Translations under genes and position numbers: made by a program
Shown here: positions 13,662 through 61,085 of the stretch, piece after piece
How positions within the stretch are numbered: the stretch's first letter is position 1
Layout: each line of letters opens with the position of its first letter
Assembly: GCA_001724265.1 (NCBI GenBank)
Contig: MEDY01000036.1
Span: forward strand, 124,001-185,085
DNA length: 61,085 nt
Direction of reading: 5' to 3'
Origin: Rhizaria sp. SCN 62-66
Lineage: Eukaryota
Notes under the pieces: generated by a model
What the model was told of the DNA's origin: nothing
Seen by the model: only the letters and a program-made list of their open reading frames with translations
Database searches by the model: none

Positions 13662-15636
13662 ATGAGCTCCTCCCGCCCGGCCGGTCCCCATTCGGCGGGG
13701 GCATCCCTGCCCGCCCAACAGTACGTTTGGGTCTGGGGCACGCTCCCTCCCGCGCTATCTACGCTGCCAGAGAACACCCGCCTGCTCAACGGCGGCGTCA
13801 CGCTCCCCGGCTACCGCAACGTCGAGCCCGTCCCTGCCCCTGCCGCCGCCGCCGGTCCCGCTGCCGCGGCCACCGCGTCCGCCATTGCCACCGCCGCGCC
13901 CGCGGCCACCGCGACGGCGCCTCTCACGGCGCACAACACGACGTTTCACCCGGACATCGCGGTGGCGCACTACACGCCCGTGCTCGTGGACGTGCTTCCC
14001 AGCGACTGTGAGCGCGTCCGCAGCATCGACGCCGGCTACAACCACGTGTCACTGCTCTCGGCCACGGGTTCTATGTACGCGTGGGGTGACGGGCCGGCCA
14101 CGCTTGTGCCGCGCGCGTTGCAGACCACCAACACCGCAGCCTCAGGCTCTCGCGCGGCGAACACCAGCACCACGAACAGCTTGAACTCCTCCTCAAACAG
14201 TGCCGGTGCCAGTGCGAGTGGAGGTGCGTGTGGTGTTGTGAATGTGGAGGTTGCGCCCCCCAGCCTGACTTTCCGCCCCGTTGCAGGCCCCCTGCGGCCG
14301 AATCCGCACTACATAACACCTCAAAACACGCACGCTCACTCAGCCAGCACGAACAGTGGTGGTGCAAACAACAGCAACAGCAGCAGCAGCTACAACTTTG
14401 GTGTGAATACTAACCAAGCCAACTTAAGTGCGAATGCTAGTGCGACAGCAATGCTAACGACAACATCAACCACGACGACTACGACAACGACGACGACAAC
14501 GACGGTGTCAACACATGCTAATGCAGCGAATGCTCAGCCTTCGACTGCGAACGGCGCTGGCACTGGCGCCGTAGCTGGCGCTGTAACTGGCGGGCTGGTT
14601 GTCATTGGCCCCGCCGCGCCCCCTGCTGATGATCCGGGACAGCGGCATACTCAGTGGTGGCCAGCAGCCGTCTCTGCTGAGGCTCCTGCTAGCGTCGGTG
14701 TCGTCGCTGTCGGCATCCCTCCCTTCGCGACGCAGACTAACAACGCCAGTAAAAACTCAATTAGAAACAACGGTCATGATAGCAGTACGCATGACAACTC
14801 TCGTGCCAGCCCATCTGCAGGCGATCAGTACGACGATATGGACTCCGAGGCTGCCGCGGCCGCTGCCGTTGCCGCGGCGTATGAGGCTGCTGAGGCGGAG
14901 GCTGACGCTTCGATTAACGCCGAGTGGGCAATTGCCACTTCGCTTTCGGCCTCGTCGTGCGCGAATCACATTCACCCGAACAAGACTCCTGGCTTGAACA
15001 GTGCTGCGGCGACTGCTGCTGCTGGCAAGAGTGGGGAGACTGGGCCTGCAACCGGTATCACAACCACTGTGACGACGACGACAACGACGTCCGTAGCCCC
15101 CTCCAGCCATACAGTCTCGCAGCGCGGCCTTTTTTCGGTCCTGCCCCCGCTGCCCCTCGGCGCCGCGTCCTCCCAGTCCGACCCATCGCACGGTGGTCAC
15201 GGTGGCCATCATCAAGGCAATGCCGCGGCTGCGAGCGCTGTCGTGCACGTGGCGTCTTCGCGCCTCAAGCAGATGGCTGTGCTGGCCTCCGGCGTGCTGC
15301 TGGAGTGGAGTCTAGCCAGAGACAGCGCCATCGACGACAACAACTTCAACCGCGACATCCACGTCCCCACGGCAACAACAACAGCAGCGTCACCGCAGCA
15401 TCCGCAGCAGCAGTTGCAGGGCGTGTTGGGCCAGCTGCAGCCGCCGATGCTCGGCTACGATAACTCCAACAACAGCAGCGGCGGCGCCAACAGCAGGATG
15501 GGCCGATCCAGTTCTGGATCTGGCTCAACGCTGCTGCGCAGCCCTGCGACCGCGGGCGCCTTTGCCGGCGGCGCTGTCACGGGTACAGGCATGGGTACCG
15601 GTGGCGCGAGCACTGGCGCCACGAGTAGCAGTGCAA

Positions 15637-15672
<36 letters not shown>

Positions 15673-40500: not shown

Positions 40501-41712
40501 AAGCTCACTGCCAGTCACGCCCACGGTGTCGGCGCCGTAGTGGGGGAGAAACGCGTTGCTGGCGGCCATCACAGCGGCAGCCGTGGCAGGCATTGACCGT
40601 GGGACAGACGAGGCCGCGGCCGAGACGTGGCTGCGCGGCGAGAGCGCGCGCGCGTGAGCGGTCACGGCGGCGGCGACGTCGGGGTTGGCGTGCAGCGCTG
40701 CGAGCGCGGCCGCGGTGTCGCCGGCGACGGAGACGGAGCCGTCGCCGGTGACGTCGTAGCCCCCGGCCGCAGCAGCGCCAGCAGCAGAGGCATCAATGAC
40801 GTTGTGAGCGGGCAGCGCGGGGACGGAGCTGGAGTCGGCGAGGGCGGCGGCGGCAGCGGCATCGAAGGCGTTGCGCGCCGCAATAGCAGAATCCTCGTCC
40901 TCCTCGTTATCAGCAGAACCAGCAGCAGCTCCAGCGCCAGCGGCGGTGTTGTTGGCATAGATGTTGGCGTAGCCGTACGCGTTGTTGTCGTCATCAGCGT
41001 CGTAGAAGGCAATGCCACTATAGTTTTCGCCTGAGCCAGTAGCATCGGCGCCGTTGCCAGTAAGCGCGACTGTGGGCTCGGCAGCGGACGTGGAGGTGGC
41101 GGCACCGGCGACGGCGCGCAAGCGAGACAACTCCAGGTCGGGCGAGCCGGGAGCCTCCGCAGCCACAGAGCCAGCGCGCGGGGGCGTGGTGGGGGCGACG
41201 CTGCTGCCGTTGCTCTGGTACTGTGACTCGGAGCGGGTGTTCGCCGCGTTGGTGTTGTTGCGGTTGATGTAGGTGTCGAACGAGGTCGACTCGTCGCTCG
41301 CGTAGCCGTGCGCAAATGTCGGCGACTGCAGCCCGTTAAACACGGCCGCCACAGGCAGCGACGGCATGTTGGCGGCACTGTTCGCGTTGACGCCTGCGTT
41401 CGCGGTGGCGTTTGTGGGGGCGAGATCGACGCTGACTTCGAAGGAGCGGTCAACGCCGGAGTGGGAGAAACTCACCTCTGCGTCCAGCGGGGTAGACGCG
41501 GCCTCACCGGGGGCAACCACAGTATCGGCGCCCGCGGGCTGTGGGTGAGCGTTGGCGGCGAGGGCCGGGTCCGCGGAGACCTCGTTGGAGGACGGGCGGG
41601 AGCGGCGCGCGGCCGCCAGAGAGGCGTCCATGGTCTCCACCATACGCTCGGTTTCACGGACGAGCTCGGAGAGAGACTCCATGCGCTTGCCTTGCGGCGT
41701 CTGGGAAGACAT
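34534..41712 (-). CDS. CEP70: Large (~2392 aa) intronless coiled-coil protein with a CEP70-like C-terminal domain; stop TAA
   Basis: Long heptad-rich region, then VVTHVQQLFAVTAPGGVIPKLNEVYLFTSQTQVALALLRDMLRL (about 35940-36130), which resembles the CEP70 C-terminal signature (HFQKLFDV..GV.P.MNEVY) as recalled. ATG at 41712 inferred. Confidence 0.65.
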   Translation of the reverse strand: MSSQTPQGKRMESLSELVRETERMVETMDASLAAARRSRPSSNEVSADPALAANAHPQPAGADTVVAPGEAASTPLDAEVSFSHSGVDRSFEVSVDLAPTNATANAGVNANSAANMPSLPVAAVFNGLQSPTFAHGYASDESTSFDTYINRNNTNAANTRSESQYQSNGSSVAPTTPPRAGSVAAEAPGSPDLELSRLRAVAGAATSTSAAEPTVALTGNGADATGSGENYSGIAFYDADDDNNAYGYANIYANNTAAGAGAAAGSADNEEDEDSAIAARNAFDAAAAAALADSSSVPALPAHNVIDASAAGAAAAGGYDVTGDGSVSVAGDTAAALAALHANPDVAAAVTAHARALSPRSHVSAAASSVPRSMPATAAAVMAASNAFLPHYGADTVGVTGSELHGNGGGNSDSSSSLSEVEASLAQYNNNNNPDDDGPVSGLSDCDDTHADPVVAAAVATMAAAVAAANAATGAANAEYPSHNGNNSSSSEDDDSVPFAGNNGYCDCENSSSSSGEGSNNCGNCAQINGNGNGVDAETSSSDSSQSGFSAVSSIRAPASAAKTSNNAASVANKRPSRVPYSPSSSSSSSLFTGDSSSSSSTSSTGNAALQRAFDAARQREATLATRLNFATTENARLRSDLVRAQGDCEQQRAALESLPTVTQWTRAQEGIASLTMQLNARNDAGTALSVAMARAVELEAQLRATESESRELDGAVARAERQGRRAAAAVQSELDALTKEFAIVSENFAATDRGLCAVAADFATAEQRWAERFAEVEARAARAEAELSLRPRAGDMAVATSVVHALNKHAGDAQLSAAQARAHGKEETDALRRKLAVAEADNAALRADLAASGGAGAMGDVGDIITELRAASAAERAAAETERARLAAAVAEAQRRAQAAEAEATALKVQLAARPEASAVEALRSQVAMAKAAAAQAKTALAARLDAVDSTSASLRADLARAASDLTAVRAELSARPTAQELADARAETDAARHAADAAARRAASELAEARERAAALTGDVKLLREEAASRKQERTVMEALREQVRTGAGREAELAAVTARLRQQERLVAELESRLATRPTLEDVKAVQDALAREKEAAASRVSAHAEETATLEAALKEDRTRVRELEQAVFELKQDLLSRPSQEEWAQRRAELAAAADEAAVARMTALQHSSRATAEAAATEARVQQLESENRALARQLSERPSADELAAVRKRAHELEVRLLEFVGRPGPRSPAQPQRPESEEVAALRERLVMLQTALDERPSVAASQELRDKADELLDHLQATERRAAAAEAAAAAEATARASETAALTDRLARVSAQAAALERRPTAAELEQARGEVAALRARVAQFDGVQEHLARVVRRTEKFEADARALRTELAARATPEDWARLKKVAAGLHARLAQADAEAAASVEALAAAKKEAAAHGEDAAALRGERESAQRARAARDSEVSELVTTMSDEIAALRSEVARARSERAADVAAAEAATRDAEAEAAALRAALTKVDAECARAAEELSRLPSEREWARARRKLAAAVAEAAEAAGRAAAAQDAAAAALARALAAEDELRSRPTMADVALADEVVAKLRAEVATLRGNIAEREGELGCTRAAFEEYRARTDAALSAARTQAAAATAAAATAGNVVEVRVPAGAAGNSLGGSPLAPRKPAEAFFVPLRDGNGVHVAALRNCSPALQASVARLSAGELATTVGSVAAALGLDDASAVAPTAARLAAAIPALQRKIRELSATARASNAACCECKTLPVTLNTNANGNANANANMISTSAVPAAVAPATAVTGPGGRAALVEDVYSKVYAELQRVFGTGAVAAWTATDLLAAVGTLLTSPVRATVAGSAGALSAADAAAVVTHVQQLFAVTAPGGVIPKLNEVYLFTSQTQVALALLRDMLRLTERAPLGTVVAAVRDLVLLINNKVSAGGSNDSSLSSGNSSDANTDAAGTAAAKSSSKSAGNAYDNKDDVAFIPARAAMGPHGVAFDITFANATAPHPSARPHHQYGAAHASAHAHASAAGNSSAGTRPATAGSRAAAHAAGAAPAAAPAHVAFADVSSSTSASSSSGLTDGNSSGSVSGTGGYYSYSPPAAAVTGVPSAEPATETVGFGADSNDFLISNNANSNGADGNLTNDNDSAASFSGLSDVTLTQQQPTITVTAAGTANNTTHHNTTAPGAGSGSRPYAVGSSPSRVAHAPRTGNGATVNANNAGAAADTEASASANNNLSDIDSKLAAIAANLTYTRPFTANSNNSAAPAAPLPKFDDDSDAAVLTGRSDAGAGFGALSSVGDDVDNAGDTENVNDGNDDAAAFDTVAPAAAAPAAVADGNEFEDEEDGQPQQQHFANPGSDSSAALDMTDSAYNAEPEPVTQAKDDAAAAASPADEGI

Positions 41713-42104
41713 AGTTTCGCAAGGACTGCCAAGGGGATGTGTGGGAGTGGAAGGTTCGAGTGGTCGGCAGACTGGAAAAGTGTCGAAGCTGAGAGGTTCA
41801 GCAAGAGGTGAAACGACCAGGAAAATATGAGCCCAACAATCTTTAATTGAAAAATTATAATAAATATAGCAGGCAATTTTGAAACATTCTGTGTGCATTC
41901 AAATTGATGATCAGATTGACGCATACTGGATCGAAACGAAGCGCCGTCGATCAGTCCACAACGGTCACTTTTCCATTTTTGCCGGTTCGTAAAAAACTGA
42001 TAGAGGAGCGAGCGACGGAGCGGCGGCGGAGAGAGATGAGGGTCCAAGTGCCGACTTGATCTCTTTTGCTCTTCGACTCAGGACATCCGTTGGCGCGATT
42101 GTAG
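41713..42104. promoter_or_regulatory. Probable bidirectional promoter between the CEP70-like and CK2 alpha genes
   Basis: 392 nt between divergent start codons. No specific element identified. Confidence 0.35.
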
Positions 42105-43554: not shown

Positions 43555-44360
43555 ACGAATGAAAACAAGCCTGATAGTACGCTATCATCTTAGTTTGTTC
43601 ATTGAATGATCTATTGAGTGTTTTTCTTGCTGGAAGGGTCGTGTATTTGTTTGCAGTGCGTCGGGCCAGGGCTCTTGTTATCTTTTCCGTCGAGGAAATG
43701 CATTGGTCAATGAATACATACGCTTTTATAACTAACGAGTTTAGACAAGCCAGTAGATGTATGTTTTTCCATTTGAAAATTGAACCAATTTGGTCTTGTT
43801 CATGTGCTGTTCGCATAATATATGTGTGGATTGTGTGACTGTGGTTGCTTTGTTTTTGTGGTGGTGGGCGAGGGGTACCAATCTACTGGTAACTCGGGGA
43901 TTCCCCGATCACTCTCGTGCACGCCGGGTACATCATAGTATAGTATAATTATACGTTGCAAGTAGACTAAGCATACTAACCAACTTCTTTTATGTGTTCA
44001 ACGCGCGAAGCAACTTGTATTTGTATCTGTAATAGTTCTATCCGTCTGACCCTCTTGCCTCAACGTCTTTGACCATCCTACTGCCCCTTTCTGATGGCTT
44101 TCTCTTGCATACTCTCTCTGTTTTCGTTTGCGACGCGTAGGACACTGTTTGTTAGGACTTGTACTACAACCTCACTTTGTTCACCTCCTTTGGAGGCCCT
44201 TTCATAACTTTCCACGGGGTTCCGCCCCCAACCCACTTGTCTTGTCCCACCGCAACTGGATCTCGCTTCTCGCTGCTCTGGGACCCCAGATCAGTTCAGT
44301 AACGTCAAACCTTTCACTCGCGCGTCTGTTTCTAGCTAACAGCCTGCACTAGACCGTTTT

Positions 44361-47300
44361 ATGCTGCGTCTTCGTCGTTTGAGTCGCAACGCGGCAGCTG
44401 CAACTGCAGTCAAGGCCACCGCAACAGTGCTCTCAACGACCACTGCCTCCACTGTCTCAAGCTCCAGCGGTATCTCCATCTCAACTGATGCATACAACAC
44501 AGCGGAGTCTGGTCCGAATGCGCACTATGCGCGCAGGGCTGGACTGTCCCGGGGCTATAGTCGTAGCTTGCAGTCTCAATCACTGATACTCCAGCACAAA
44601 CACCACTCGCACTCACTCTCACAGGCGCTTGCTCAGTCACCGTCGACGTCACAGGCACAGGAGCTGGAGCAGGTGCCGCTGTCGCAGCTGCACTTGCGCA
44701 TGCAGCGGCAATTGCAGCAGCAAGAGCTCCAACAATACCGCCATACTGCTCGCGCGAGCGTCAGTGACCCGACTGTTGCGGCGACGTGTTATGGCCCTGC
44801 ACTGCCCTCTGGTCCCGTGTCGGCAGCGACCGCATTCACAGCCAGTGCAAGCTCCAGTGTGGCAGTGAACAGCAATGGTAGTCGCAGGTTTGCGAGCACG
44901 TACGCGACCACCGACTCAGCCTCAGTCCCTGCTCAGACCTCCGCCGCTGCGGCTGGCGCTGCTGCTTCTGTCGCTTCCGGTAGTACTGCTTATCACCACA
45001 GCCACAGTCTCAGCCTGCACAGCCACAGCCACAGCATGAACACTCTCCACGGCACCCACAGCATCCACAGTCAAAGCGCCAGTCTTCACACCGGCCACAG
45101 TGGCCCCCCGTCTCCTTATTATAGCGACGCTGTGTTGCCGTCGCTGTCGCTGGCCGAGCGCCGCGCGCTGCTGCCGTACCTCGCCGCAGCGCTGTCTGCC
45201 CCTGCGCCCACTGCGGAGGCAGCCTTGTCTCCGATGTCGAGTGAGGATGGCTCAAGTCTAGCTGCTTCAAACAACAGCGACGCTCAAGCTAGCGCGATAG
45301 TTAATGATGAGTCTCACCTCTCACAACACGCGCTTGCAACCAGCAGTCGCCAACCAGACGCAACTGCTCGCGCCGATAGCCCCCACGGCCACCCCGTCAG
45401 CCACACTCACGACGACAACAAAGGCGACGGCGAGGACGAAAGCCACGACGCCGCCCACAGTCACGCGCGCAGCCACGGCTTCAGCAGCGGCGCGAGCAAG
45501 CGCGGCCGCCGCGTGCTTTCGCTGCCATTCTCCCCGCCGTCCCCGCGCCTCGCCACCGTGGCGCGCGCCGCCGCCACGTCCGTGAACCTGTACCTAAGTC
45601 AGGCCGCTTCGTACCCACTGCTGCCGCCGCTGCAGCGCAGCTCGCGCCGCCGCGCCCGCGCCCGCGCGCGGGCCAACGCGATTGCTGCGGCGGCAACTGA
45701 CGTGCTGTCGTTCCATCTCTTGCCACCGCTGCTGCCGCCTCTGTTCCCCCCTGCAACAACAACGGCGTCAACGGCGGCTGCTGCTGCGAATAGCAGCACT
45801 GCTGCTGGGTCGAGCGTCTCATCGGCTGTCGGCACTGCTACTGCCGGCGTTGGAGCTGCTGACGCCGCCGCGGCCAATACCGCCGCCATTGCTGCCGCCG
45901 CCGAGGCTGCTGCGCTGTGGGACGGCGGCGGCCGCGGACTGCCGCTGTCGCCGCGCCTGGTCCCCGAGGCCGCCGCCGACGCCGCCGCGGACGCTGTGGC
46001 CGTGCAGCGCGTGAACCGGCGTGTGGCGCGGCTGCTGCGGCGGGCGCGGCGCGCGCTCAGGACCGGCGGGCGCGCGGGGTAGCGCGCCGCGGCGGCGACG
46101 GCGGCGGCGGAGGCTGCGGAGGAAGAGGAGGAAGAGGAAGTCGCCGCCGAGGCCGAGGCTGAGGCGGAAGCTGAGGACGGTGGTGACCACAACGCCAGCG
46201 CTGCGACCGCTGCTGCTGCTCGTGAGGGCAACGCGCTGACCGCTACCGGCACTGCTGCTGGCGCTGCTGAGGGCGGTCTCGCTACTGCTGAGAAGGAGCA
46301 CTGGCAGGTGACGGAGGGCTACGACGAGCACGGTGAGCTGTCGCCTGATTCGCTCACGACCAGCGCACACAACAACGCTCAGACCAAGAAGAAGATTACC
46401 GAGGGCAGCACCGAGACCAAGACAGACCTTAGCACTGCTCGCAGTGACGACAATGCAGATGCTGCTTCTGGCGACTTAGCTGATGACGAGGCTGAGATTG
46501 CTGCTGTTTCGACGAAGAAGACGCAAGCTAATGGCAGCATTGCAGCGAGACTGAAGCCTCGTTTGGGTGCGGACGTTCAGCCGCACAAGAAACACGGCCA
46601 CACCCACAGCAACAGCCACCACGGGACTGCGCCGACACACGGCTCGATCCACAATCCCAGTCACGGCCACATTCACGGCCACAGCCACGGTGGTCATGGA
46701 CGCAATGTGCTGAAGGCCGACCGCGCCGCTGCCGCCGCCGCGGCTGCTGCAGTTGATCGTACCACCACCGCCGCGACTGCAGCGGGTACTGCGACCGCTG
46801 CGGATGCCGCTGCCACTAAGACTGCGGCCAACGTGGGCACAACGGCCCCCGCACCCCGCCGGCTCGCAGTCACGGTCAACAGCTTCCTTGAGCGCGCCAC
46901 CGCGGCCGCCGCAGCCTCCGCCTCCGCCGCGGCTGCCGCTTCGGCCTCCGCCGCCGCGGGCCGCGCGCGGTCCCGGGCCAGCGCCGCTACTGCCGCTGCT
47001 TCAGCCGCGGCGACGACCGCGACGAGCTCCCGCGCGCTTGCCAAGTCAGGCGTTGCGGGGGCTGCTAAGGAGGACGACAACGTGTCGACCTCGCCCTCAT
47101 CGTCTTCTAGGTACGGTTGATTGTTCTCAACATGATTTGTCATTTGATATCGATCTTTGTTATTTTCAATGTTTTCTTGAATTGATTTCTTAACACTCAC
47201 ACGTTTTTTGTCGCTTCGTTTTTTCTTGTATGATGTGTCACGAAACTCTTAGTTGGAGTTCAAGCAGCAGCAGCGACAGCGACGGCCCGTACTACTCTCT

Positions 47301-50300
47301 CGCCCGCCACCGCCGCTCATCTGTCGGCACACGCCGCGGCTACTTGCACGAGGCCCTCAAGCACTTACAGCCCTCCGGCGCCAATACTGCGACGTCTACG
47401 ATGACTGCGGCTAGGGCTGTGAATGGCTCGCGCCCGCCCCCGCTGGACCCGTGGGCGGTGGCCCCGCCGCTCGGCGCCGCGGCCACCGCGGCCGCGTCCT
47501 TCGCTGCAGCCGTGCTGTCCTCCGGCGCGTCCCCGCAAGACGTTGCTCTCCTCACGCACACGCCGCTGCCGCTGGGCGCGACGGCACCCGTGTCGTTGCG
47601 CGCCGCGCCCGCGCTGTTTCGCCGCGTGCGCTACAGCAACACGTCGCGCTCGGTGTACCTCTCCGGCGGCGGCACGCACGCGCACGCGCACGTGCAGCGC
47701 CGCCGCAACGCGCGCCGACTCCGCAACAGCAGCAGCAGCGCGAACATCAACGCTCACACCAACGCTGCGGTGCGGCTGCGCGGTGTCGGCGGCGGCGCGG
47801 CGGGGCTGGTGGCGAACCCGTACTCCGTGTACGACACGTCGGGCGTCTACCGCGGCGTCTCCGTCCTCAGTCCGAACAGAGACAAGGGCGCAAGCACACG
47901 CACTCGTGCCAGCTCCAGCGCTAGCAAGGCGAATCGTGGGGCTGCACCGAGTCATGGGGCCGCGGGTTGCTCGAGCGCTAACGGGTCCGTGGGCAGCAGC
48001 GGCAGCCGCGCGCCGTCTCTTTTCACACCGCGCTACCTCGGTCCGCTACACTCCGTCACTGGCGAGCTCGCGCCTCAGCCCTACATCACGCTCGCGCGCG
48101 CCGCCGCTGCTGCGGCCGTAGCGGCTGCGGCTGAGGCAGCGGCGCGCGCCCCGTCGCCGCGCGCGGACACGCTGTTCGGCTCGCTGTCGCCCAAGGCGTT
48201 CCCGCGCCTCAACATTCTGCAGTGGGGCAGCGACAGCAACGGCAACGACAACAGCAGCCACGCTAGCGCTACCGGTAACATGAGCAATACCAGTAGTCTT
48301 ATTGGCGGTCTTGTTGTCGACGACAAGGCTGCGAACGCGGGTCTGTCCTATGTGCAGCAGCATCTGCGCAACGAGGAGGCCAAGTATGATGCAGAGCAGC
48401 TGCAGAAGCAGCAACAACAGCAGCAGCGCGGCATTGCGACGGCCGCGCGGTCCGCAGTCACCGCGGCCCCCGCCGCGCTGTCTCTGACGCGCTCGCGCCC
48501 GCCTGCAGCCTCGTCGTCGAGCACCTCGGCCTGGGTGCGCCTCGGTCCCGGCTCTTCTTATGCGACGACGAACTGCGCCAGTGCGGAGACCGACGCAGAT
48601 GGCACTGGTCTCACTGCTGCTGCTGCCGCTCCTGCTGTTCACCGGAACAGCGCCACCACTGCGAACGGCCCCGCCTTCAGCTCTATCGCGGACGGCCGCG
48701 GCCGGCTGTCGCGCGCACGCTTTCTCTCCTCGGACCCCCGCGTGCGCGCGCGCCAGCAGGGCCGCTGGTACCGCGACCCCGAGACAGGTGCAATCGCACA
48801 GGCCGCGCCCTTTGAGCGCTGCATCGCCGCCGCTGCTGCGGACGCCGATGAGACGGCTGTGGCGGCGCCGTCGTCGTCCACCGCTACTACCACAGCTGCT
48901 GCGACGACCACCACCGTGACGGCGACGACGACGACCGCTGGCGGTGTCACTGCGAGCGCGACCGAGACGACACAGACTGCGCAGCAGCCGACTCATGCTG
49001 CAGCTGCGACAGCATCGACGGCCTTGGTGCCGCGCCGCACTGTGCACTACCCTCCGTCGCCGCCCCCGGCCTGGGTCGCCCCGTCCCCGCTGCTACCGCC
49101 GCCGCTGGTCAATGCCGCGGCCACGATCTACACGCACGGCACTGAGGCCTTTGCGGCCATGTGGCGCTCGATGGCCTCTGCGCAGCGCGAGATTCTGATC
49201 GAAACGTACGTGCTTGCGGCTGACGACACCGGCATGCGCACGCTGCAACTGCTCACGGCCGCCGCGGAGCGCGGCGTCGACGTCGTGCTGCTCTACGACG
49301 CATTCGGCTCTTCTTCTGAGCTCGTCGATTTCGCAGACTTCACCCCGCTGCTGCGCGCCGGTGGCCGCATCGTGTCATTCAACAGCGGCGTCACGCTCAC
49401 GCGGTCGCCCTTTTTCAGGAACCACCGCAAGAACCTAGTCGTGGACGCGCGTGTGGCCTTCACTGGCGGCATGAACACCAGCAACGAGTACAACTCGTGG
49501 ACTGCGGAGCACGGCAGCAGCTTCAATGACGTGCATCTCCGCGTCGTCGGTCCCTCGGCGCTCGATCTGCGCGCCAGTGTCATCGAGTCGCTCCGTGAGT
49601 GCGATTTCCCGACCGACTCTCTGATGCCGGCCGAAGCGGCTGCGGATCAGTCGATCGACGTATGGCGCGGGCCTGTGCCTGCGTTCGCGAAGAAGCAGAT
49701 CAAGGCGACCGGAAGCCGACTCGTCTGGCTACCGTCTTATACAGCCAGCAGCGCGATTAGTAGCTTAAGCAGCCCAGCGACTGATGCTGCGGCTGCTGCG
49801 AAAGCTGCACATTTGCTACCACAGTTGATCCCACCGTCGTCTCAGTTGCCGCCGGAGTTCGTGGTCGACATGGCGCTCCATGACGACCCGCGGCCCGTGT
49901 CGCACTGGCGCCGCGTCTGGGTGCGCGCGCCCCTCGCCGCCGCGCAGAAGGCCGCTCTCGACCAGCAGCTCGCGCTGCAGGTTGAGCAGGAGCGCGTTCA
50001 CAAGCAGCAGCGGCTGGCGCTGCTGCAGGCGCGCAGCTCCGGCGACCCCGCCGCGATCGCCGCCGCCAACGCCGCGCTGGCGACTGCGGCTGCGCACGCG
50101 GCACCGCACGCGCGCAACGCCAAGGAGGCGATCTCGCCGACGTGGGGCACGTTCTTCCGCTTCGAGCGCACGCTCAAGGAGCTGCGGTCCGTTTTCACCG
50201 GCAGAGGCCCGCTGGCGCTGGCGCGCGCCGCCGCCGACTGGCGCGCTCGGCGCCGGTCGGAGAAGCGGGCGCGGCAGCGCGTGGCGCGCGCGCAGGCTGA

Positions 50301-53300
50301 GATCGTGGCGAGCGCGCGCGCGCGGCAGCAGAGGCAGCAGCAGCAGTTGCTGCAGCAAGCGGTGCTGTCCGCTAATGCGGCCCCGACGACGACGACCCCC
50401 CCTGCGAATGCAAGCAGTCACACTGCGCAGAAGGTGACCGCTGCTGTTGACGCGAGCACGAACGTATCTGTGACTCCCGCGCCTGCTGTGGAAACTGCAT
50501 CGACACAAGTATTGACTTTGAGTCACGCGCCTCTGGCTCCAAGTGGCTCGAGAACCGTCGTGACTTCGACTGCGGCAGAACCTTCGCATCCGGCCGCAGC
50601 GACGCATGCGACGAGTGCTGGTGACTTGCCGTCTCGCGGTGCGCGCCCGCGTCGCGCCCCGCGACTGCTGCGTCTCTCGCCGTCGTCGCAGGCGCGTCTC
50701 CTGATTGGCAATGACTGCGAAAGCTTTGATGACCCTCATGATTCCAAGAGCATGGCTAGCTCAAGCACTGGGAACAGCGTCAAGGATGACAAGCATCGTC
50801 GAATCGTAATTGAGGACAGCGTGAGCCTCAATGTGCCGTCATCTGCTTCACATAACACTGACTTGTCTGTTTCTTCCACTCAGGCTCCTAAGGCTTCTGC
50901 TACTGCTGCTTCTAACGTCGTGCCTCAGACGACTGCCCCTGTTGCCTCCACAACAGCGTCAGCTGCAACGCAATCGACATCGATTCCTTCGGCTGCCCCC
51001 ACGAGCACGAACACGACTGGAGAGCTGCCGCAGCGCCACAAGCCTGCACAGCGCGCTTCGACTGCACTGCCCGTGGTCGCCACAAGTCCACCCAACGCGC
51101 TGCCCCCCGCTGTGCCCGCAACGGCAAAGCCCACGTTGACGCCTGACACTCCCACCGCTGCTGTCGCCCACTCCGCTCCGGTTGCTTCAGCAAGTTCTAC
51201 TGCTGCTGCGGCCACATCGTCTGTCACTCCTACGCACGCGACTGGGGCCGCACCCGCACACGCCTCTGTGCGCCAGCATCAGCCCGCACGTTCGCCCGCC
51301 CAGTCTTTATCGACTGTGTCCGCATCTGTGCACTCAGCTACACCTGCATCTACCCCTGCGCCAGCGCCTGCGCCCGCGCCCCGCGTGTGCTCCGCGTCCA
51401 CCCGCGCCCCCGCAGCGCCGGTCACCGTTGCCGACCAGCTCTTCTTTACCACCGGCATGACCAACGTGCGCGGCCTCGCCGGCAAGCCCCTGCGCGCGCT
51501 GCGCACCCTCGCGCCGGCGCCCGCGATCGCCGCCGTGGCCCTCGCCAGCGGCTGCGACGCCGCGGGCGTGGCCGTCACAGCCGCGGCGGTCGGCGCCGCG
51601 GTGGACGTGCTGCGCGCCGACGCCGACCTGGCGCGGCTGGAGGACCCCTCGGCGGCGGCGCAGCACGGCGGCGGCGCGGCGGGCCACGGCCCCGCGGTCG
51701 TCGTTTCCCCCGCGGCCGCGCAGTCGTCGCTGTCGCCCGCAGGCGGCGCGGTCGCGGGCTCCGCCGCCGCGGCCGCCGCCGCAGCCGCCGCGGCCGCCGC
51801 TGCCGAGGCCAAGCTGCCGCTGCCGCAGCGCGTGCGCCGCGCCGTGGGCCGCTGGGCCTCCGCGCGCGCCGTCGCGGTGACGCGGCTTTTCTTCGGCTCC
51901 ACCGGCGCCGCGCGGCCTCGGTACCCCGGGCGGCGTTACACCGCGCGCCGGCTCACGTACATCCTCACGGGACGCTTCGGCACCACCGCGCGCGGCAAGA
52001 ACAGCATCAGCAGCGCGAGCAAGAAGGGCGGCCCTTTGGGTGCGTCTGGCTCTGTTGCCGCCGTGTCACCTGGCGCTGTGGAGGCTGCGACAGCTGCTGT
52101 CTTGCGCGGCGCCGCCGACACGGGCAAGAGCAAGGGATTGTCCTCTCTGCGTGCGCGTGTGCACGAGTGCTACTCGGCGGCTCTGGCGACCGCGAAGTCG
52201 CGCGCCGTGGCTGCGGTCGCGCGCGGGGTTGCTGGCGCGTGGGCCGCGATGCCGCGCTGGGTGCGGGGCAGCAAGCTGGCTGCGAGCATGAAGGCGCGTG
52301 CCGATAAGACTGTCGCCGCGCTCGCCAAGTCCCGCTTCTGGGGCGATGGCTCGGACAAGTACACTGCCTCGCTTGGCGCATCTTGCTCTGGCCGCGATGG
52401 CGCGGCAGACTCTCTTGCCGCCGCAGCGCCGACCGGTGCTGCCGCGGCCGCCTTTGCCGAGGGCGTGCGCACCGCGGCCCTGCTCCCCGCAGCGCCGCTG
52501 ACGGCGATCAGCGTGCCACTGCAGACGCTGCAGTCGAACTCGGCGACGGGCGACCGCGCGATCCAGGCGTTCCTGCACCACGCCATCGCCATGGCGCGAG
52601 ACACGCTGTGCTTCACCAACCCGTATGTCGTGCCGCCAGAGTGGCTCAAGCAGGCGCTGTTTGACGCAGTCAAGCGCGGCGTCGAGGTCACGCTTCTCAC
52701 TGCAGGTACGCTTTTTATTTATTTATTTGAAATAACCATCCGTTTTTTTTTCTGTCTACATGTCATGTTATGTTTGATTTGATGTTCCTTCATTTCTATT
52801 CGTCATTTTCTCATGCGATCATTTGAGCTTTTCTTTTGATTTGACAGGCCCCTACTGCAGCGACGTGCCCGTGGTGCGCTGGGCGACGGTGCACACGTAC
52901 TCGCAGTACCTGGACAACGGCGTTCGAGTTTTTGAGTACAACGGCCCCCGCACTCTGCACGCTAAGACCCTCGTCATCGACGGCCAGATCGCCTGCGTCG
53001 GCTCCTTCAACCTGGATCTCTACTCGGCGCTGGTGAACCTCGAGACGATGGTCGTGATCCCGCCCACGGTCACCCCCGTCTCGCACCTGCATGCGCACCC
53101 GTCCGCGCATCCCGGCGGCGCCACCCACGCCGGCGGGCTCTCGGCCGCGGTGGCCACGGTCACCCCGCGCCCGCCCACGGTCACCAACCCCGTGGCGACA
53201 TACCTGCTGGAGAAGTTCCGGTCCGACCTGCACTCTTGCCACGAGGTCACCCGCACCGACCTGGCGGCGTGGCCGCTGTGGCAGCGCGCACTGGTCCGCA

Positions 53301-56254
53301 CTGCGCACTTCTCCGTCATCACCGTCTACCGCCTCGCCACCGTGTCCCCCCTGACGATCCTGCTGTCTGCCGTGGCCAAGGCGCGCGACGGCCTGCCCGC
53401 GCCGCCGGCCTCGGTCCGTCGCGCGCGCGCGCGCCGCCGCCGCGCTGAGCGGGTGCGTGCGCTCGGCCTCCGCTTCCGCCGCGGGCTGCTGCGCGCGTTG
53501 GGCACCGTCCACAGCGCCGCGGCGCGCATCCGCGCGGTTAGATCCTCGGTCGTGCCCCGCAGTGTCTCTGATGCCGAGGGCGGCGTCAGCGTCACCGATG
53601 GCGCTGCGGTTACGTCCGCGCCTGCCTCTGCGCTGGCGGGCGGCGCGGCCGCGTGGGTTGAGGGGCAGAGTAAGCGCATCCGCCGCGCTCTTGCCGCGGC
53701 TGCTGCGCTGGCGAAGAAGACCCGGTCGCACGCGTCTTCGTTCACCGCGAGCACCAGTGACGCCAGTAGTGTCGCTGTTGACGTTGCTGGTAGTGACAAG
53801 TCGGGGCACGGCCTCACGTTAAACAGCACGTCGTCGCAGCAGCACCAACATCAGCAGAGTCAGTCTGGCGCGGCCCCCATCACCGCTGCCGCCGCCGCGC
53901 TCGCCCGCGCATCCGCCGCCGTCGCCGCGCCGGCGCCCAGCAGCTCTCTCACCATCGACGGCGAGGAGGCCGCGCCCGTGGCATACGCGCCCCGCGTGCG
54001 GAACCACTTCTTCGCCGACATCTTCTCGCTGCTGGAGCTGGGCGCCATGCTGCGTGGGTCGCACCGCGCGCTCGAGTACGTGCTCTCGCTCTCGCAACAC
54101 AACGCGACCGGCCACGGCCGCAACAACGGCGGAAGCAACAGCAACAGCAGCAGCTCTTCTGCGGTTGTTGCGACCCCGCCCCCGCTGCGGTCCCCGCTAC
54201 CGCTGGTGCCCGCCCTCTCGATGTCGCTGTCCGCGCTCGCGCGCCTGGGGCTGCGCGGCGCGCGCGCCTCCGTGGTGGGGCCCGCAACGGTCGCCGGGCA
54301 TGGGCTCGGCCTAGTGTCAAACGTTGGCGTCGGCATGGGGCACGCGCGCGTCTGGCTGCCTGCTCCGAACGCGAGCTCTAGCGCGGTCGCTCATGCTCAA
54401 ACTAAAGCGGATAGCACGAACGCCGTGAATGCGAGCCAAAGTCAGAGTGCCAGTCCAGGTGCGAGTGCGCATACAGCTAGTGCGTTGGTGCCAGTGCGCG
54501 TGCCATATTTCCTGCCCCTGTCCGCGAACGCCATCTACCCCGCGGCGACAGTCACTCCCGTCCCCGCCTCCGCCGCGGCGGCCTCCGCTGCCGCGGCTCT
54601 CACCGCGGGCGGCGTTGTCCCCACTGGCTTCTCCCCCGCGCTGCCGCCGCCGCGCGCGCTGCCCATCGCCGCCGCGACCGCGGCCCCGCTCGTGGCGGCG
54701 TCATCGCTTGTCGCCGTCGTCGAGGCCGAGCTAGGCAAGGTGCACCGCGCCGCGTTCAAGGCCGCCGACGTCATCATCGCCACGCATAACAGGGCGCTGG
54801 CGGCGCACGCGCAGTCCCCGTACGCAGTCAGTGATGCCGGCGTCGGCGCCGCGTCGGCATGCGGGACCGTGGTGAGCGCCGCCGACTCTGCCGCAGCGCG
54901 CGCGCTCACCTGCAGCCAGGCGCCGTACGCGTCGGTCACGCGCGTGCTCGCGCTGGCCGCGGCGTCCCCGTCGCAGGCGCACTTCCTGCCCATGGCGCTC
55001 TCGTTGGCCGCGCCTATCGCGCCCGTGCTGGTGCCGGCGCCGCTGCTGCCGCGAGAGGCCAGGCCCGCGCGGGCGGTCTCCGGCAGCAATAGTACGGTCG
55101 CTGAAGGCAGTAACGGCTGCTGGACTGTCAACAGCTGCAAGCGCTCTGACACTGGCGCCGCCGCTGCGGGTGCGCTCGACTGCACCGCGGTCGCGGCTGC
55201 GACGATCGTGACTGACTGCGGCAGCGTCACCGCCGGTCTCGGCGGCAGTGGCGGCGAGGCAGGTTGCGTGACGGGCGGCGTGTTCCTCGTGACTGAGGAC
55301 GCGGTGGACCCCACGACGACGGCCGCAGTGGAGACGATCGCGCTGCCGTACGCGCTCGCAGCGACGCTCACGCACAACTCACAGCGCGCGCGCGCACTCG
55401 CGACGGCGCAGGCGGGCAGCAAGGCTAGCGGCCGGGATTCGAGCAAGACTCTTAGCGCTAGTGTAAGTACCTGCTTAGTCTATGGCCCCACGACCATGGA
55501 CGCTCTCGAGGCCGCAGTCGACGCTGCCGTCGTAATCACGCTCTCCGAGGCCAAGCCGTCGTCCAACGCGTCTGACGCGAAGGCATCTCCTTCACAGTCG
55601 CACACCGGCTTTGGCTCTGCAACCTCCGGCGCGGTGACTGTTGCGGAAGTTAGGCCACCCGCGAAGCGTGTGCTGCAGTCGCTGGCCTCACACCCCGGTC
55701 TGCGGGCCGCGGTGGCGGGTCAGGATGACGACGACGCCGAGGCCGGGGTTGGCGGCAAGCTCTGGACGCTCACCAAGCTCACAGGCAGAGTGATCGCACG
55801 CAAGGCAGGCCAGCTCTTCAGCACGCTTCTCGCCAGCGCCCGCTCCGGCTCCGGCTCTGGTAGCCGCGCCGGCGGTAGCTCGACCGAGTTGACTGTGGCC
55901 AGCGCGGCGGACCGCGAGGCAGACGCGGTTGGCGCGCAGGCCTACGAGCTCGCGGCCGACCTCGCGTGGCGGCTCGCCACAGCCTCGCAGCGGCAGCTCG
56001 ACCGCGCCAGATCGCGTGGGCGGCTGTGGGCGTACCGCACGACGCTCCCGCTGCGGCGCCAGCTCGCGCGTGCGGAGCGGCGCATCGTGCAGTGGCTACC
56101 TGTCGAGGAGCGCCAGGGGTACCGCAAGCAGCGGACGGACGCGCGCCGTCGCAAGGAGGAGGATGACGACGCCGCCGAGGAGGAGGAGGAAGCCCGTGAG
56201 GGCCGCGTCGGCAAGGGACGCATCGGCCCCAAGGAGAGCAAGTGGTTCTATTAA
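44361..56254 (+). CDS. PLD-superfamily (bacterial Cls-type) cardiolipin synthase-like protein, ~3869 aa, with probable mitochondrial presequence. Exons 44361-47110 (in-frame TAG at 46080-46082), 47253-52705, 52848-56254; stop TAA
   Basis: HKD1 RNHRKNLVVDARVAFTGGMN (49423-49446) preceded by AQREILIETY..D..G..L..AAERGVDVVLLYDAFGS. HKD2 TLHAKTLVIDGQIACVGSFNLD (52958-52981) preceded by FTNPYVVP..AVKRGVEV. Both introns join in frame. N-terminus MLRLRRLSRNAAAA is presequence-like. The 5' part of the model depends on reading through the TAG. Confidence 0.75.
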
Positions 56255-56715
56255 TGCTCAGCACGAGGTGATGCTGTGTTACAAGTTCCAACATGGACAA
56301 CTCTTGCTGTTTTCGTAATTTATTGAACGCGTCTAATGACGCACACAGTTATATATACCTTGATTATAATTTATTATTCACCAAATACATATCTACATCC
56401 GTGTTCAGTCTGTATTGTGCATTTTTTAATGTGAGCGTTATCCACGTATGCATGATTCACCCGCTTTCCCGGTGGCAAGGCAACGGTTGGCGAGCAACAA
56501 CTTTCGAAAGTTTGAAGTTTGAACACATGGGCTGCCTTGCAGAGTCGTCAAATAGTGATGCCACGGAGTAATAAGATGTGATCAATGGCATAAACATCGA
56601 GAATTAAATTATATTTTGAAATGACTTCTTATACATGCAGATATGCACCGAGGTAATTCGTGCCTCACTCACATCAATCCTGCCATTTCTCTCTCTTCCT
56701 TGTTGACAGCCCACG

Positions 56716-59700
56716 ATGTTCCCCGGAACCATGGGTCCCTCCCGCCCACCTACGACCTATCAAAACTATGGGGCTTCGGTGTCCGAGTCATCCGCAGCGA
56801 ACGAGCTGCTCGAGCAGGCCTTCGCGCTGCCGCTGACGCCGCACCACCTGGCTGTGGCGCTGCTTGTGCAGTCCTGCGGCGTCGACCGTACCATCGCGCG
56901 CACGCAGCTGCGCCGCCCACGCTCCGCGGACCGTGACCCCGCGACGGCCGTGGCTTTTGCCAAGCTCGCCGTCGCGCACCACCTCATCGCGCACGCGGAC
57001 TCGCTGCTCCTGCTCAACACCAACACCAACGCCAAGACCACTCAGAACATGAGCAGCTTTGCCAACACGGCGAACACGGAGGCGAGCGCGGGCAGTCGGG
57101 CGCGCGCCGGGATGACCTTTCTCCCTATTGCGGCGCACATGTTCCACACACTGCCACCGGCCTTCGCGGTGGCTGTGAGCCGCGTCATCTGCTCCGAGCT
57201 GGCCTCGCTCGCCGCGCCCTCGGCCGCCGCTCTGCCCCAGCTCGCGCTCGCGCCCCCGCCCACCGCCGAGCGCCCGCCCCCGCGCAACACCAACAGCAAC
57301 AGCAATGCCGCTGTGACTACTGCTCCGTCCGGGGCCCCGCTGGCGCTGCTGGTCTCCTCCCTCGTCGCCCTCACCGACGCCACCTCCTCGCTCTCCGCTC
57401 TCGGCGCGCAAGACGCCGTCACCGCCGCGGTCGCGCTGGCCGCGGTCCCCGCCGCCACCGCCGCCGCGCTGGCCGCGGGCGCGGTGCCGCCGCTTGCGGC
57501 GCACCCGTTCCATCTGCTGCGCGCCAACGCGCTTCACGCGCGCGCGCGCTCCGCCGCCTCCGTCGCCGCCTTCGGGGCCTCCGCGGCCGTGGCCGAGGCC
57601 GCCGCGGAGGACGTGGCCGCGGCGACGGCGACGCCCGTGCTCGTCCCGTTCGCGATGCCCTCTGTCTTCTCGGCATACTTGCGCGCGGTGGCGGCCCGGG
57701 CCGCGCGGCTGAGCCCCGCGTAGGCCGCGCTGCTCGCGGGCGCCCTGCGCGTCTACGCCGACGTTGACCTCGGCGTGGCGCGCGCGAGCGCCCACGGTCA
57801 CTCTGCTGCCCACGGTCAGTCTCAGTTGTGGAGTCTGCCTGAATTGTATCGCAACAGCACCACTGCGGCCACTGACTCTACGCGCAGCTCCAGCAGCGCT
57901 CGTTCCAGCTCGAGGACGAATTCGGCCAATGATGACGACGATGACGATGACGAAGAGTATGCGGAGTACAGCGGCTACGATGACTGCGGCAGCGACGACG
58001 ACGACGACTTGGACGGCGTCGCAGCCTGGCACGGCTCCCTCTTTCCCAGCACACTTGCACTGGGCAGCAGTCGCCCCACCGCCGCCGCTGTCGCCCCGCG
58101 GCTTCTGCGGACGCCGCTGCCGGTGTATCCGGCGCCGCACGCGCCGCAGTCGCTATGGCAGCTCCCCGTGCCCGCGCTTGCGCTCGCGCTGGCGGGGCTC
58201 GCCGCGCGCCCCGCGGCTCTGACCGGCCGCTGGTGCAGACACAGCAGCAGCACCACGAGCTGTGACTCCCGATCCCAGTTGCAGTCGCAGTCACTGCTCT
58301 CGTGTGTGCAGTTGGCGCTGGCGCAAGCCTTGCAGCCCCGGCGTCCGATGACGCAGGTCGCACTGCTCCGCAGTGAGGATCTTAACGACCTGCATGCAAC
58401 AACACACGCATGCGATGGCGGAAACAGTTGTGGTGGCAACAGCTCAGTGTACGCGTACTCGCCTCTAATCACACACCAACGCGCTCACACTTCATCGTCA
58501 CAGTTGCAGTCGCAGTCGCCGTCCGCAGCAGTGCTGCCTCCTGCGTTCGCCGCGTACATGGCCGCCGCCACCCACACGCACCGCCACCTCTCTGCCGCGT
58601 ACGCACGTGACTACGATTTCAACACCAGCAGCACCACACCAGTGGGCTCGTTCAACCGCAACACCGCCGCGCTGGTTCCGAGCCCAATCCCGTTCTCGCC
58701 CGCCGCGGCGCCCACCGTGCTGCTGCTGCTGGCGACGCTGCTGGGCCGGCGCCGGTCCCCGCGCGCGGCGCTCGCTAGGCTGGCCGCGCTCGCTCTCGCG
58801 CGCGCCAGCGAGGCGTCGCCGCTGTCGCAGGCCGCAGCGGCCGCCGCGTCCACCGCCGCCGCGGGCTTCCACAACAGCGACCTGCTCGCACACCGCCAGC
58901 TCGCGCTGTTGCTGCGCTCTGCGTCCAAGCAGCCCGCAGGCGCCGTTGCCGCGCTGCTGCGGGCCGCGGTCGCGCTGCGCGCCGGCGCCCCCGCCGCGGC
59001 CGCGGCCGACGCCGCGCTGGCCGTGGCGCTGGCCGACGCCTCGGTGCTGTCGACGCTGGGCACCGTCACCACGGCCGCCGCGGTGGGCGCCGCCGCGGGC
59101 GACCCTGCCGCGCGGCACTCGGGCGGCGCGTCCCCGGCGGGCGCCACGCCCGTGCTCGTCGCGGACCTGCCGCGGCTGTTGTCGGGCGCGCCGCCCGCGG
59201 CCGCGACGCCGCCCGCGCACCTGGCCGCGGCCGCGGGGGCGGGCGCCACGGCCGCGCGCGGCGGGCTGCGGCTGGGCTCGCTGGGCGGCGGCGTTCTGCC
59301 CGTCGTCGCGCTGCTGCCCGCGCTCGTCTCGCTCGCCACGCTCGCGCCCGTCACCGTCACGACGACGACCAACGCCAGTGCAGCCACATTCTCTGGCACC
59401 GGCGCTGCTGGCGCTGCTGGCGGAGGCGGCGGCGGCGGCGCGAAGGCGGCCGGGTACGCGCCCCCGCACGCGCACGGCGCGCGCGCGTTGCTGTCGCTCT
59501 CGGCGCTGCTCACGGTTTCCGCCGCGTCCACCGCCGTGGCGCTGCATTGGGCCGACCACCACCGGTGGACCGACGCGCTGGCCGCCAAGACCGCGCTGGC
59601 AGCGGCGGCGCAGCTAGCGGCCGAGGGGCTGGGCGCGGCTTTCGACCTCCTGCGCAGCAACGATGGCAAGACCGTCGCCGAGGCGATCACCGCCGTCACG

Positions 59701-61085
59701 GCCCGCGCCGCGCTGCCCGCCGTAATGGTCGCCGCCGCCACGGCCGCCGTTGCCTCGGCCACGAGTGCCGCGAGCGGCGGCCCTAGTGGCGGGGCGGGGG
59801 CGGTCGGCGCGGGCAGCGCTGCGGCAGGCGTGTCGTCACTGGGCACCGGCATCGCTACGACTGGCCCCGCCGCGGCCGCCGCGCTGGAGGCGCTGCTCGC
59901 GCTCGCGCGGCCCGCAACCGCCGCCGCCATCGCCTCGGTGCTGGCCGCCACTGCCGCCGCATCGACGGCAGCAGGAGTGCACACCAGCGCGACCCGGACG
60001 CGTGCCACGGCCGTGGCGGTCACGCGCGCGGTGTCCCTGGCGCTGGCCGTGGCCGATCGCGCCGCGCACGGGCACCGGCTCGCGCGCGCGGGCGCCGCAC
60101 TGGGGCCGGGGACCGCGCTCGCCGCGCCGCTGCCGGGCGCCGTCGCTGCGGCGGCGGACGACACGCTCGCCACTGCCGCGGCCGCTGCTGCTGTGGCCAT
60201 CAGCCAGGGCTCCGCAACGGCCGCAGTTGCCGCGCTGGCCGCAACGCGCGCTCTCTCTGATATCAGCGGCGGCGGCAGTGGCGGCGGCGGTAGCGCGCTG
60301 CTGCTGTCGCCGGTGCTGCCGCTGGGCGTCTACTCCCCGCTCGCGCTTGCCACAGTTGCCGCCGCGTCCCTCACCCCCGTCGGCGCTGCCGCTGCCACGG
60401 CCGCGACGGCGCCGCTGCGGCTGGCGCTGGCGCCGACGGCCACGACCACTCTGGCCACGCCCGCCGGCGCCCTGGAGGTGACCGTGGGCGCGGCGCTGGC
60501 GGCGCGGGCCGGCGCGCTCTGGCGCCTCGGCCACCGCGGGCCCGCGCTCGTGGCCGCCCGGCTCGCGCTCGGCGGCCGGCCCCTGCCGCTGCGCCTGCCC
60601 CGCGCCGCTCTCTGCAGTAACGGCGACGGCATGTTGCCGACTGCGACAGCGACAGCACCTAGTGTGCGCCTGCGCGTGCTCGCGCGCTGCTCGGCGCGGC
60701 CGACCGCTGCCGCGCGCGCCGCCGCCGCCGTCGCTGCATACGCGGCGGCAGCGACTCTGGCTGGCGGCACCGGCACTGGCCCCGCGGCTCCCGCCGCGTG
60801 CCGCGCTGTCCTCGCGACTGTGGGCAACGCTAGTGACCTAAGTACCCCCTTAGACCAGCTCGCGGCGCTCTCTGCACAGGGCAGCGCTGACGACGACGAC
60901 AACTCGGTTGTCAAGCAGCTTGTGCCTGCCACCGTTGCAACGCCGATCGTGACTCTGAGCAATGGCTACGATCTCGCCAGCAACAGCGCTAGCTCCGCGA
61001 CTGGTGATCAGATGTCGTCGGCGCTCGCACTTAGCGCCCTCGCCGCCCCGGCCGCGGCCCGCGCCCGCGCCAGCGCTGCCCCGGC
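56716..61085 (+). CDS. ANAPC5: Anaphase-promoting complex subunit 5-like protein, partial (runs off the window), in-frame TAG at 57721-57723
   Basis: LTPHHLAVALLV near the N-terminus, SVFSAYLRAVAARAARLSPA*AALLAGALRVY, and RAGALWRLGHRGPAL (about 60505-60550) resemble APC5 blocks as recalled (VTPYKIAVLVL; SVVGLFLR..KLSFSQVFKLYTALQQY; TAIWRLYGR). The frame appears stop-free from 57724 to the window end. Confidence 0.6.

Follow-up and report, generated by a model that had tools for sequence, protein, structure and literature searches.

In a 61,085-nucleotide (nt) stretch of DNA from Rhizaria sp. SCN 62-66 (assembly GCA_001724265.1, contig MEDY01000036.1, positions 124,001 to 185,085 of the forward strand), hereinafter the window, two neighboring genes are each interrupted by a single in-frame TAG codon. 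TAG1 (46080-46082) lies in a gene for a cardiolipin-synthase-like protein with two PLD domains, and TAG2 (57721-57723) in an orphan gene, denoted gene B. The two UAGs are genuine in the DNA and in frame, the coding-like sequence around them is intact, and UAG terminates none of the genes in the window. On balance, we consider it probable, by a modest degree, that translation continues through both UAGs in one way or another. As to the route, we tentatively propose, with a confidence that falls short of even, that UAG is a genome-wide sense codon which is very rarely used and no longer a working terminator. That an amino acid is inserted at UAG, which amino acid this would be, and that the change extends across the genome are points that we infer.

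Both codons had been singled out in a reading made from the letters alone (the sequence-only reading), according to which UAG is read as sense, probably as glutamine (Gln), while UAA and UGA remain stops. We located them on the plus strand at the positions given there, TAG1 as codon 574 of the spliced cardiolipin-synthase-like gene (by frame scan, codon score and a DNA contig) and TAG2 as codon 336 of gene B (by frame scan, codon score and DNA contigs). The claim that both frames continue without stops was likewise borne out: the frame after TAG1 is open for 1,028 bases (~343 codons), up to the splice donor GTACGG at 47111, and the frame after TAG2 for 1,120 codons, up to the end of the window. 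Neither TAG has an AT-rich segment or a consensus donor next to it, in agreement with the earlier statement that no intron signature is nearby.

To place these codons among all stops of the window, all stops flanked on each side by 100 or more stop-free codons (n=49) were assessed with a codon-usage log-odds score trained on the domain-bearing frames (7,651 training codons). Only 4 of the 49 stops have a coding score on both sides, namely, TAG1, TAG2 and two stops inside introns of the XRN1 gene. The latter two, TGA 4310-4312 and TAG 4913-4915 (minus strand), were rejected as sense codons because they sit in AT-rich in-frame introns of 183 and 135 nt, respectively. A laxer scan, with 40 codons on each side, yielded TAG2 and one minus-strand TGA (57534-57536) located opposite gene B, and nothing further on the plus strand. 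TAG1 and TAG2 are the sole in-frame stops in coding-like sequence of the window outside AT-rich introns, and no frameshift or other in-frame stop was detected across ~16,600 codons.

The coding signal carries on in frame 3' of both stops, as readthrough of these codons would have it. In 20-codon windows on either side of both TAGs, the TAG frame has positive log-odds, except for one negative window immediately 5' of TAG1; both other frames of the plus strand score below zero. The GC content at third codon positions (GC3) of the TAG2 frame is 0.85-0.95 on both sides, like that of genes with known domains. Near TAG1 the GC3 signal is weaker; the codon score of the TAG1 frame is positive over ~44,700-47,100, where it is the top of the six frames nearly everywhere.

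These measurements bear on the possibility of an artefact or an overlooked feature, that is, an assembly or consensus error shared by all sources, a GC-rich in-frame intron, or mimicry of coding sequence by alanine repeats. A codon model trained on alanine-rich genes favors alanine-rich repeats, but the GC3 values flanking TAG2 match those of the domain-bearing genes, and TAG1 alone interrupts a spliced frame of 3,869 codons. With respect to hidden introns, 235 in-frame GT..AG spans can be drawn around TAG1, seven of which share one common weak donor, GTGTGG; around TAG2 there are 88 such spans, none with a donor-like start. All convincing introns in the window, in contrast, have a GC content of 30-42% and GTACG-like donors. 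A shared error gains some credit from the low depth of the organism in run X3, only ~5-7x, and X3 may be the source sample of the window itself. Nevertheless, when checked for CAG or TGG in place of TAG, the independently built Illumina contigs of X3 show TAG at both sites, and those covering 45532-47296 and 55192-59020 have 0 differences from the window. Furthermore, the 335-amino-acid (aa) frame that starts at ATG 56716 and ends at TAG2 occurs without any change on 6 contigs, the longest of 187 kb, spread over three collections (JGI/IMG, Logan and ENA). We regard an artefact of any of these kinds as very improbable.

The gene carrying TAG1 forms one continuous frame once two predicted introns are removed. 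The spliced coding sequence (44361..56254, plus strand) comprises 11,610 nt and 3,869 codons, with TAG1 as the lone internal stop. The predicted exon 1 (44361..47110) starts with MLRLRRLSRN and is alanine-rich and of low complexity; TAG1 is within the frame-0 open frame (44340-47120) to which this exon belongs. Predicted intron 1 (47111..47252; GTACGG...TAG, 142 nt, 32% GC) links frame 0 to frame 1, and its removal fuses the TAG1 frame with the PLD frame. Exon 2 (47253..52705) encodes the first PLD/HKD domain, and removal of predicted intron 2 (52706..52847; GTACGC...CAG, 142 nt, 30% GC) joins the two PLD halves, the second PLD/HKD domain being encoded by exon 3 (52848..56254), which ends in the TAA stop at 56252-56254. 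Contigs of runs X4 and X8 run unspliced over intron 47111-47252 or its 3' edge, as DNA would. From TAG1 to the donor at 47111 the frame contains no ATG; the first one past TAG1, at 47401, is in exon 2, upstream of both PLD domains. Given that TAG1 is the only break in a gene of 3,869 codons and that no restart ATG follows it in exon 1, the predicted gene structure needs UAG to be read.

Among NCBIfam models, the best match of the encoded protein is bacterial-type cardiolipin synthase (TIGR04265, ClsB), with both under the curated cut-offs. Low-complexity runs rich in alanine, serine and histidine swell the gene to its 3,869 codons, and the N terminus of the protein, MLRLRRLSRNAAAATAVKA, resembles by eye a mitochondrial presequence. 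A homologue search with exon 1 returned nothing, the low-complexity words having probably swamped the candidates, and a sequence search of the PDB with exon 2 gave 0 matches. At position 50307, within a (GC)n run of the PLD frame, the contigs of X4 and X10 have one additional C, which would be a frameshifting length variant if real; it probably stems from foreign GC-rich contigs aligned at 90% likeness, with depths of 33 and 10 versus ~5 for the organism.

Gene B (56716..61083, plus strand) is an orphan, alanine-rich open frame of more than 1,455 codons that leaves the window. Its ATG (56716) is directly 3' of an AT-rich spacer. Such AT-rich spacers separate every other gene pair in the window, and nothing similar is present at TAG2, where the next in-frame ATG is 208 codons further downstream. 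Since neither TAG has a restart ATG nearby and TAG2 lacks a spacer, neither is an ordinary gene end. Protein searches with gene B, comprising word-index searches that covered lengths of at least 309 residues (targets of 800-2,548 aa and 309-984 aa) and 1.84 billion representatives of all lengths, returned only its own 335-aa fragment (P0002), and none of them yielded a longer form that reads past TAG2. No match to gene B was obtained in metagenome, genome or viral contigs, and no Pfam family was recognized on either side of either TAG.

The terminators of the window provide a second line of evidence. For each of the 10 complete genes, the segment with a coding score extends to the first in-frame stop, which is TAA in 6 and TGA in 4 genes and TAG in none; this confirms the earlier tally, albeit on a small sample. 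TAA ends the genes for the XRN1, AMP-binding, RCC1/TBC, Oscp1 and PLD proteins as well as a minus-strand frame at 34.5-41.7 kb (stop positions 1479, 12858, 24066, 30680, 34534 and 56252), whereas the LSM, hydrolase, cyclophilin and kinase genes end in TGA. Codons ending in G outnumber those ending in A by ~7-11:1 (CAG/CAA 204/30, GAG/GAA 318/37, AAG/AAA 149/13). The occurrence of TAA at 6 of the 10 ends despite this bias points to strong selection on terminator choice, whatever UAG means.

Under the explanation that we tentatively put forward, UAG would not be a working terminator in this organism, UAA and UGA would stay stops, and UAG would be decoded genome-wide by a suppressor or near-cognate tRNA, with its recognition by eRF1 weakened. 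The rarity of sense UAG would then reflect a reassignment of UAG alone that has only begun or is inefficient. Wherever the window allowed this proposal to be challenged computationally, it stood: the DNA reads TAG at both sites, no intron removes either codon, 0 of 10 genes end in TAG, and the coding signal is in frame. Of the sequence-only reading, the reality of the in-frame TAGs and the absence of TAG ends hold; the code change itself is only partly supported, and the proposed assignment to Gln found no support.

A number of observations weigh against a genome-wide sense UAG. There are just 2 TAGs per ~16,600 coding codons in 11 genes (~0.12 per 1,000 codons), both in two adjacent genes that account for 32% of the codons of the window, and none falls in a conserved domain (XRN, RCC1/TBC, kinase, PLD, AMP-binding, Oscp1 and cyclophilin). 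Judging from the frequency of CAG (204 of 7,651 codons), a settled reassignment to Gln under GC bias would be expected to produce dozens of TAGs. Searches of the window for tRNAs and with Rfam gave 0 matches each, and the eRF1 gene lies outside it. No homologue covering TAG1 or TAG2 was found, and the amino acid at UAG is therefore not assignable from these two low-complexity sites. TAG makes up ~20% of terminators in other GC-rich eukaryotes, and if that rate applied here the chance of 0 TAGs among 10 ends would be ~0.1. Finally, with the codon usage of the window, ~70% of random single-base nonsense mutations would yield TAG, so that the identity of both stops as TAG is in itself weak evidence.

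The low density is a departure from established UAG-only codes. A split between UAG and UAA is very rare in nuclear codes, and the published cases are mature codes: UAG encodes Gln in Iotanema spirale and leucine (Leu) in the rhizarian exLh (PMC5304391), and several phyllopharyngean ciliates also have UAG alone reassigned (PMC11687900). Iotanema has 204 UAGs in 126 genes and exLh 384 in 71 genes, compared with 2 in 11 genes here, a difference that likewise tells against a full-fledged code change (PMC5304391). Many of the UAGs in Iotanema and exLh are at conserved Gln or Leu positions, whereas here none can be aligned; a preference for UAA over UGA at gene ends is common to all three, with 104/15 in Iotanema and 56/15 in exLh (PMC5304391) and 6/4 in the window. 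The TAG density contradicts a mature reassignment of UAG but is compatible with one that is early or inefficient.

An explanation that leaves the standard code intact is that the two TAGs are premature-stop alleles, that is, two recent nonsense mutations that arose most simply from CAG or TGG. These would truncate the long low-complexity N-terminal parts of the proteins, and the enzyme could still be produced from the in-frame ATG at 47401, which precedes both PLD domains. Such alleles would accord with the poor constraint on both sites, which are devoid of homologues, with the adjacency of the affected genes and with a TAG density far under that of real UAG codes; at ~70% TAG per nonsense mutation, two of two being TAG has a likelihood of ~0.5. 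As in an ordinary nonsense polymorphism or a young pseudogene, there is one premature stop per gene, it is in a weakly constrained region, and it is the commonest nonsense outcome. However, unlike in ordinary pseudogenization, 2 of 11 genes are affected and no other lesion is present; two nulls among so few genes, with neither a frameshift nor another stop in ~16,600 codons, would be improbable, and null alleles do not account for the lack of TAG among the 10 terminators. Moreover, the TAG2-ended frame is the sole form found on the 6 contigs from the three collections, and the organism is not confined to one sample: its sequence is present in 13 public runs of bioreactor, wastewater and activated-sludge metagenomes from 9 studies spanning 2015-2025, although 10 of these 13 runs hold less than half of the sampled words. 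The three single-base differences listed in other runs over the 17 kb compared are all downstream of TAG2, and each alters a third position of the TAG2 frame without changing the amino acid (chance ~0.04, for a very small sample), which fits ongoing constraint 3' of this codon. Taken together, we hold premature-stop alleles to be rather unlikely.

The RNA context of the two codons introduces a further consideration. The 120 nt starting from each TAG are predicted to fold with unusual stability, with z-scores of -2.09 (TAG1) and -2.03 (TAG2), and 6 and 7 of 200 shuffles, respectively, are as stable. Values of z <= -2 were obtained for 9 of 140 random coding windows and for 3 of 191 windows starting at an in-frame CAG, and the joint chance of both TAG folds is ~0.001. 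When the surrounding +/-360 nt were scanned, the lowest z was reached in windows that start 30-60 nt upstream of each TAG and include it. Folds of larger windows place UAG in a hairpin in both cases: hairpin 1 (46069..46088, plus strand) has 7 G-C pairs (46069-46075 with 46082-46088) and the loop GGGGUA, and hairpin 2 (57703..57730, plus strand) has 8 pairs (57703-57710 with 57723-57730) and 12 loop nucleotides, the last three being GUA. In both hairpins the loop ends with the U and A of UAG, and the 3' arm begins with its G. The same layout, which was defined only after inspection of the folds, occurred at 8 of 638 GC-rich control sites with a codon swapped to TAG and at 2 of 87 out-of-frame TAGs. 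By a published measure, an A in a hairpin loop when 30 nt on each side are folded, 174 of 420 controls qualify as well; by the strict form of this measure TAG1 passes, and TAG2 does so only when an inner helix of 2 bp is disregarded. Folded by themselves, the 61-nt hairpins do not exceed shuffles in stability (z of -0.37 and +0.12).

A plain change of the code does not predict a shared hairpin context, which is thus a further point against it. The predicted context fits readthrough stimulated by 3' structure, A-to-inosine (A-to-I) correction of the stop, or a mutational hot spot. The last of these belongs with the premature-stop alleles: unpaired bases deaminate more readily, the U and A of both TAGs are unpaired in the loop, and the hairpin loops would then simply be the places where the mutations arose.

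The two other routes amount to site-specific recoding under an otherwise standard code, with a hairpin marking each UAG. The hairpin would either stimulate readthrough by a near-cognate tRNA or guide an A-to-inosine edit that changes UAG to UGG (tryptophan, Trp), and short and full-length products could arise conditionally. The stability of the 120-nt folds at both TAGs (z of about -2) and the same position of UAG in a 7-8 bp stem-loop at both sites argue for such marking, whereas the frequency of qualifying hairpins among the controls, the failure of TAG2 in the strict version and the unremarkable 61-nt folds argue against it, and recoding leaves the 0 of 10 TAG terminators unexplained. For readthrough, the bases following the codons (UAG-C and UAG-G) are unlike the tobamovirus-type motif. 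With regard to editing, no A-to-G change is among the listed differences of the RNA runs over 17 kb, where no listed RNA contig spans the TAGs. Specifically, at least 8 pieces from the polyA RNA run X10 map to the region, 7 of those listed lying in the PLD gene and 1 in gene B; among the X10 and X8 pieces listed, which are the longest only, none spans either TAG or either intron. To our knowledge, A-to-I editing that corrects stops occurs only in the sexual stage of filamentous ascomycetes. The bacterial-type cardiolipin synthase, Oscp1 and the AT-rich introns of ~135-230 nt do not suggest an ascomycete. We accordingly view site-specific recoding as unlikely.

Comparison with known recoding systems reveals both parallels and discrepancies. 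In Fusarium, the in-frame stops corrected by editing are UAG, and U at position -1 and stable hairpin loops are preferred (PMC4817773; PMC11156358). As in the A-to-I correction of Fusarium graminearum and Neurospora, a few otherwise intact genes are broken by UAG alone, and the A follows a U, precedes a G and is unpaired in a predicted hairpin; unlike in these fungi, where the edited A is central, as in an anticodon loop, the A here is the last base of the loop (PMC4817773). Programmed stop-codon readthrough is stimulated by extended 3' stem-loops (PMC3159437; PMC13170385), and the sites in the window resemble such cases in that a long coding-like frame directly follows the stop and the local RNA is predicted to be stable (PMC3159437). 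The published cases are, however, mostly viral or from insects and often involve UGA rather than UAG; the frames beyond the stop, ~3,300 and more than 1,100 codons here, are very long by comparison, and the predicted stems begin at the stop itself instead of past a spacer.

A further variant is a code change caught at an ambiguous stage, in which UAG would have been purged from gene ends and would be tolerated internally only at stable hairpins. In this case, the hairpin at the codon would tip the balance from termination to decoding or editing, and the mitochondrial-type cardiolipin synthase and the giant orphan protein would be made in full length only via hairpin-assisted reading of UAG. 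This combination appears quite unlikely to us.

The GC content of the whole window is 46-76% in 2-kb windows, with a genome at ~65-70% GC, and a scan shows large open frames on both strands that are broken by AT-rich segments. The predicted introns measure ~135-230 nt, have a GC content of 30-42% and run from a GTACG-like donor to an AG acceptor. They are strikingly uniform: ~20 segments stand out as sharp AT-rich islands, for instance, those at 3241-3385, 4837-4971, 10681-10844, 32061-32200, 47111-47252 and 52706-52847, and the donor is nearly always GTACG(T/C). Pfam families were assigned to genes for an XRN1-like exonuclease, an AMP-binding enzyme, an RCC1/RabGAP-TBC protein, an LSM protein, an alpha/beta hydrolase, Oscp1, a cyclophilin, a CK2-like kinase and the two-domain PLD protein. 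Intact long frames reach 3,504, 2,454, 1,862 and 1,158 codons. The longest, at 13554-24068 (plus strand), is free of introns and combines RCC1 repeats at residues ~1,050-1,340 with a C-terminal RabGAP-TBC domain; the frame of 2,454 codons at 34534-41898 (minus strand) is alanine-rich and matches no Pfam family. The gene content and the AT-rich introns identify the window as nuclear DNA of a GC-rich microbial eukaryote, and its long contigs and introns of ~135-230 nt are not ciliate-like.

The kinase gene has matches at 21 metagenome loci, of which one is close, a 1.5-kb metagenome contig of 62% GC (L001) that carries a CK2-like kinase gene alone, at 34-1281, with 84% identity and the stop TGA; it is the sole close relative of the organism in any collection searched. 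A second locus (L002) was rejected as a relative: it shares 61% identity, has 52% GC and belongs to another eukaryote, and its in-frame TAG precedes a start codon. The kinase search of genome contigs produced 7 loci, all bacterial or archaeal, and that of the Atlas only generic CMGC-kinase clusters. The window contains no dispersed repeats usable for finding more of the genome. A limited full-text search of the literature retrieved no description of a GC-rich wastewater eukaryote with a sense UAG.

The biological meaning of the two codons depends on which of these explanations applies. If they are null alleles, the finding is an ordinary one. It would then caution against diagnosing a code change from a pair of in-frame TAGs in a GC-rich genome, where nonsense mutations produce TAG far more often than any other stop. 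If it is the hairpins that bring about editing or readthrough, a new eukaryotic lineage would join those that correct stops in cellular genes by recoding, and the expression of a mitochondrial lipid enzyme would be tied to recoding. Finally, if UAG is indeed a sense codon, an organism with almost no sense UAG and no UAG ends would show how a reassignment starts and would open the 'codon capture' and 'ambiguous intermediate' models to direct testing.

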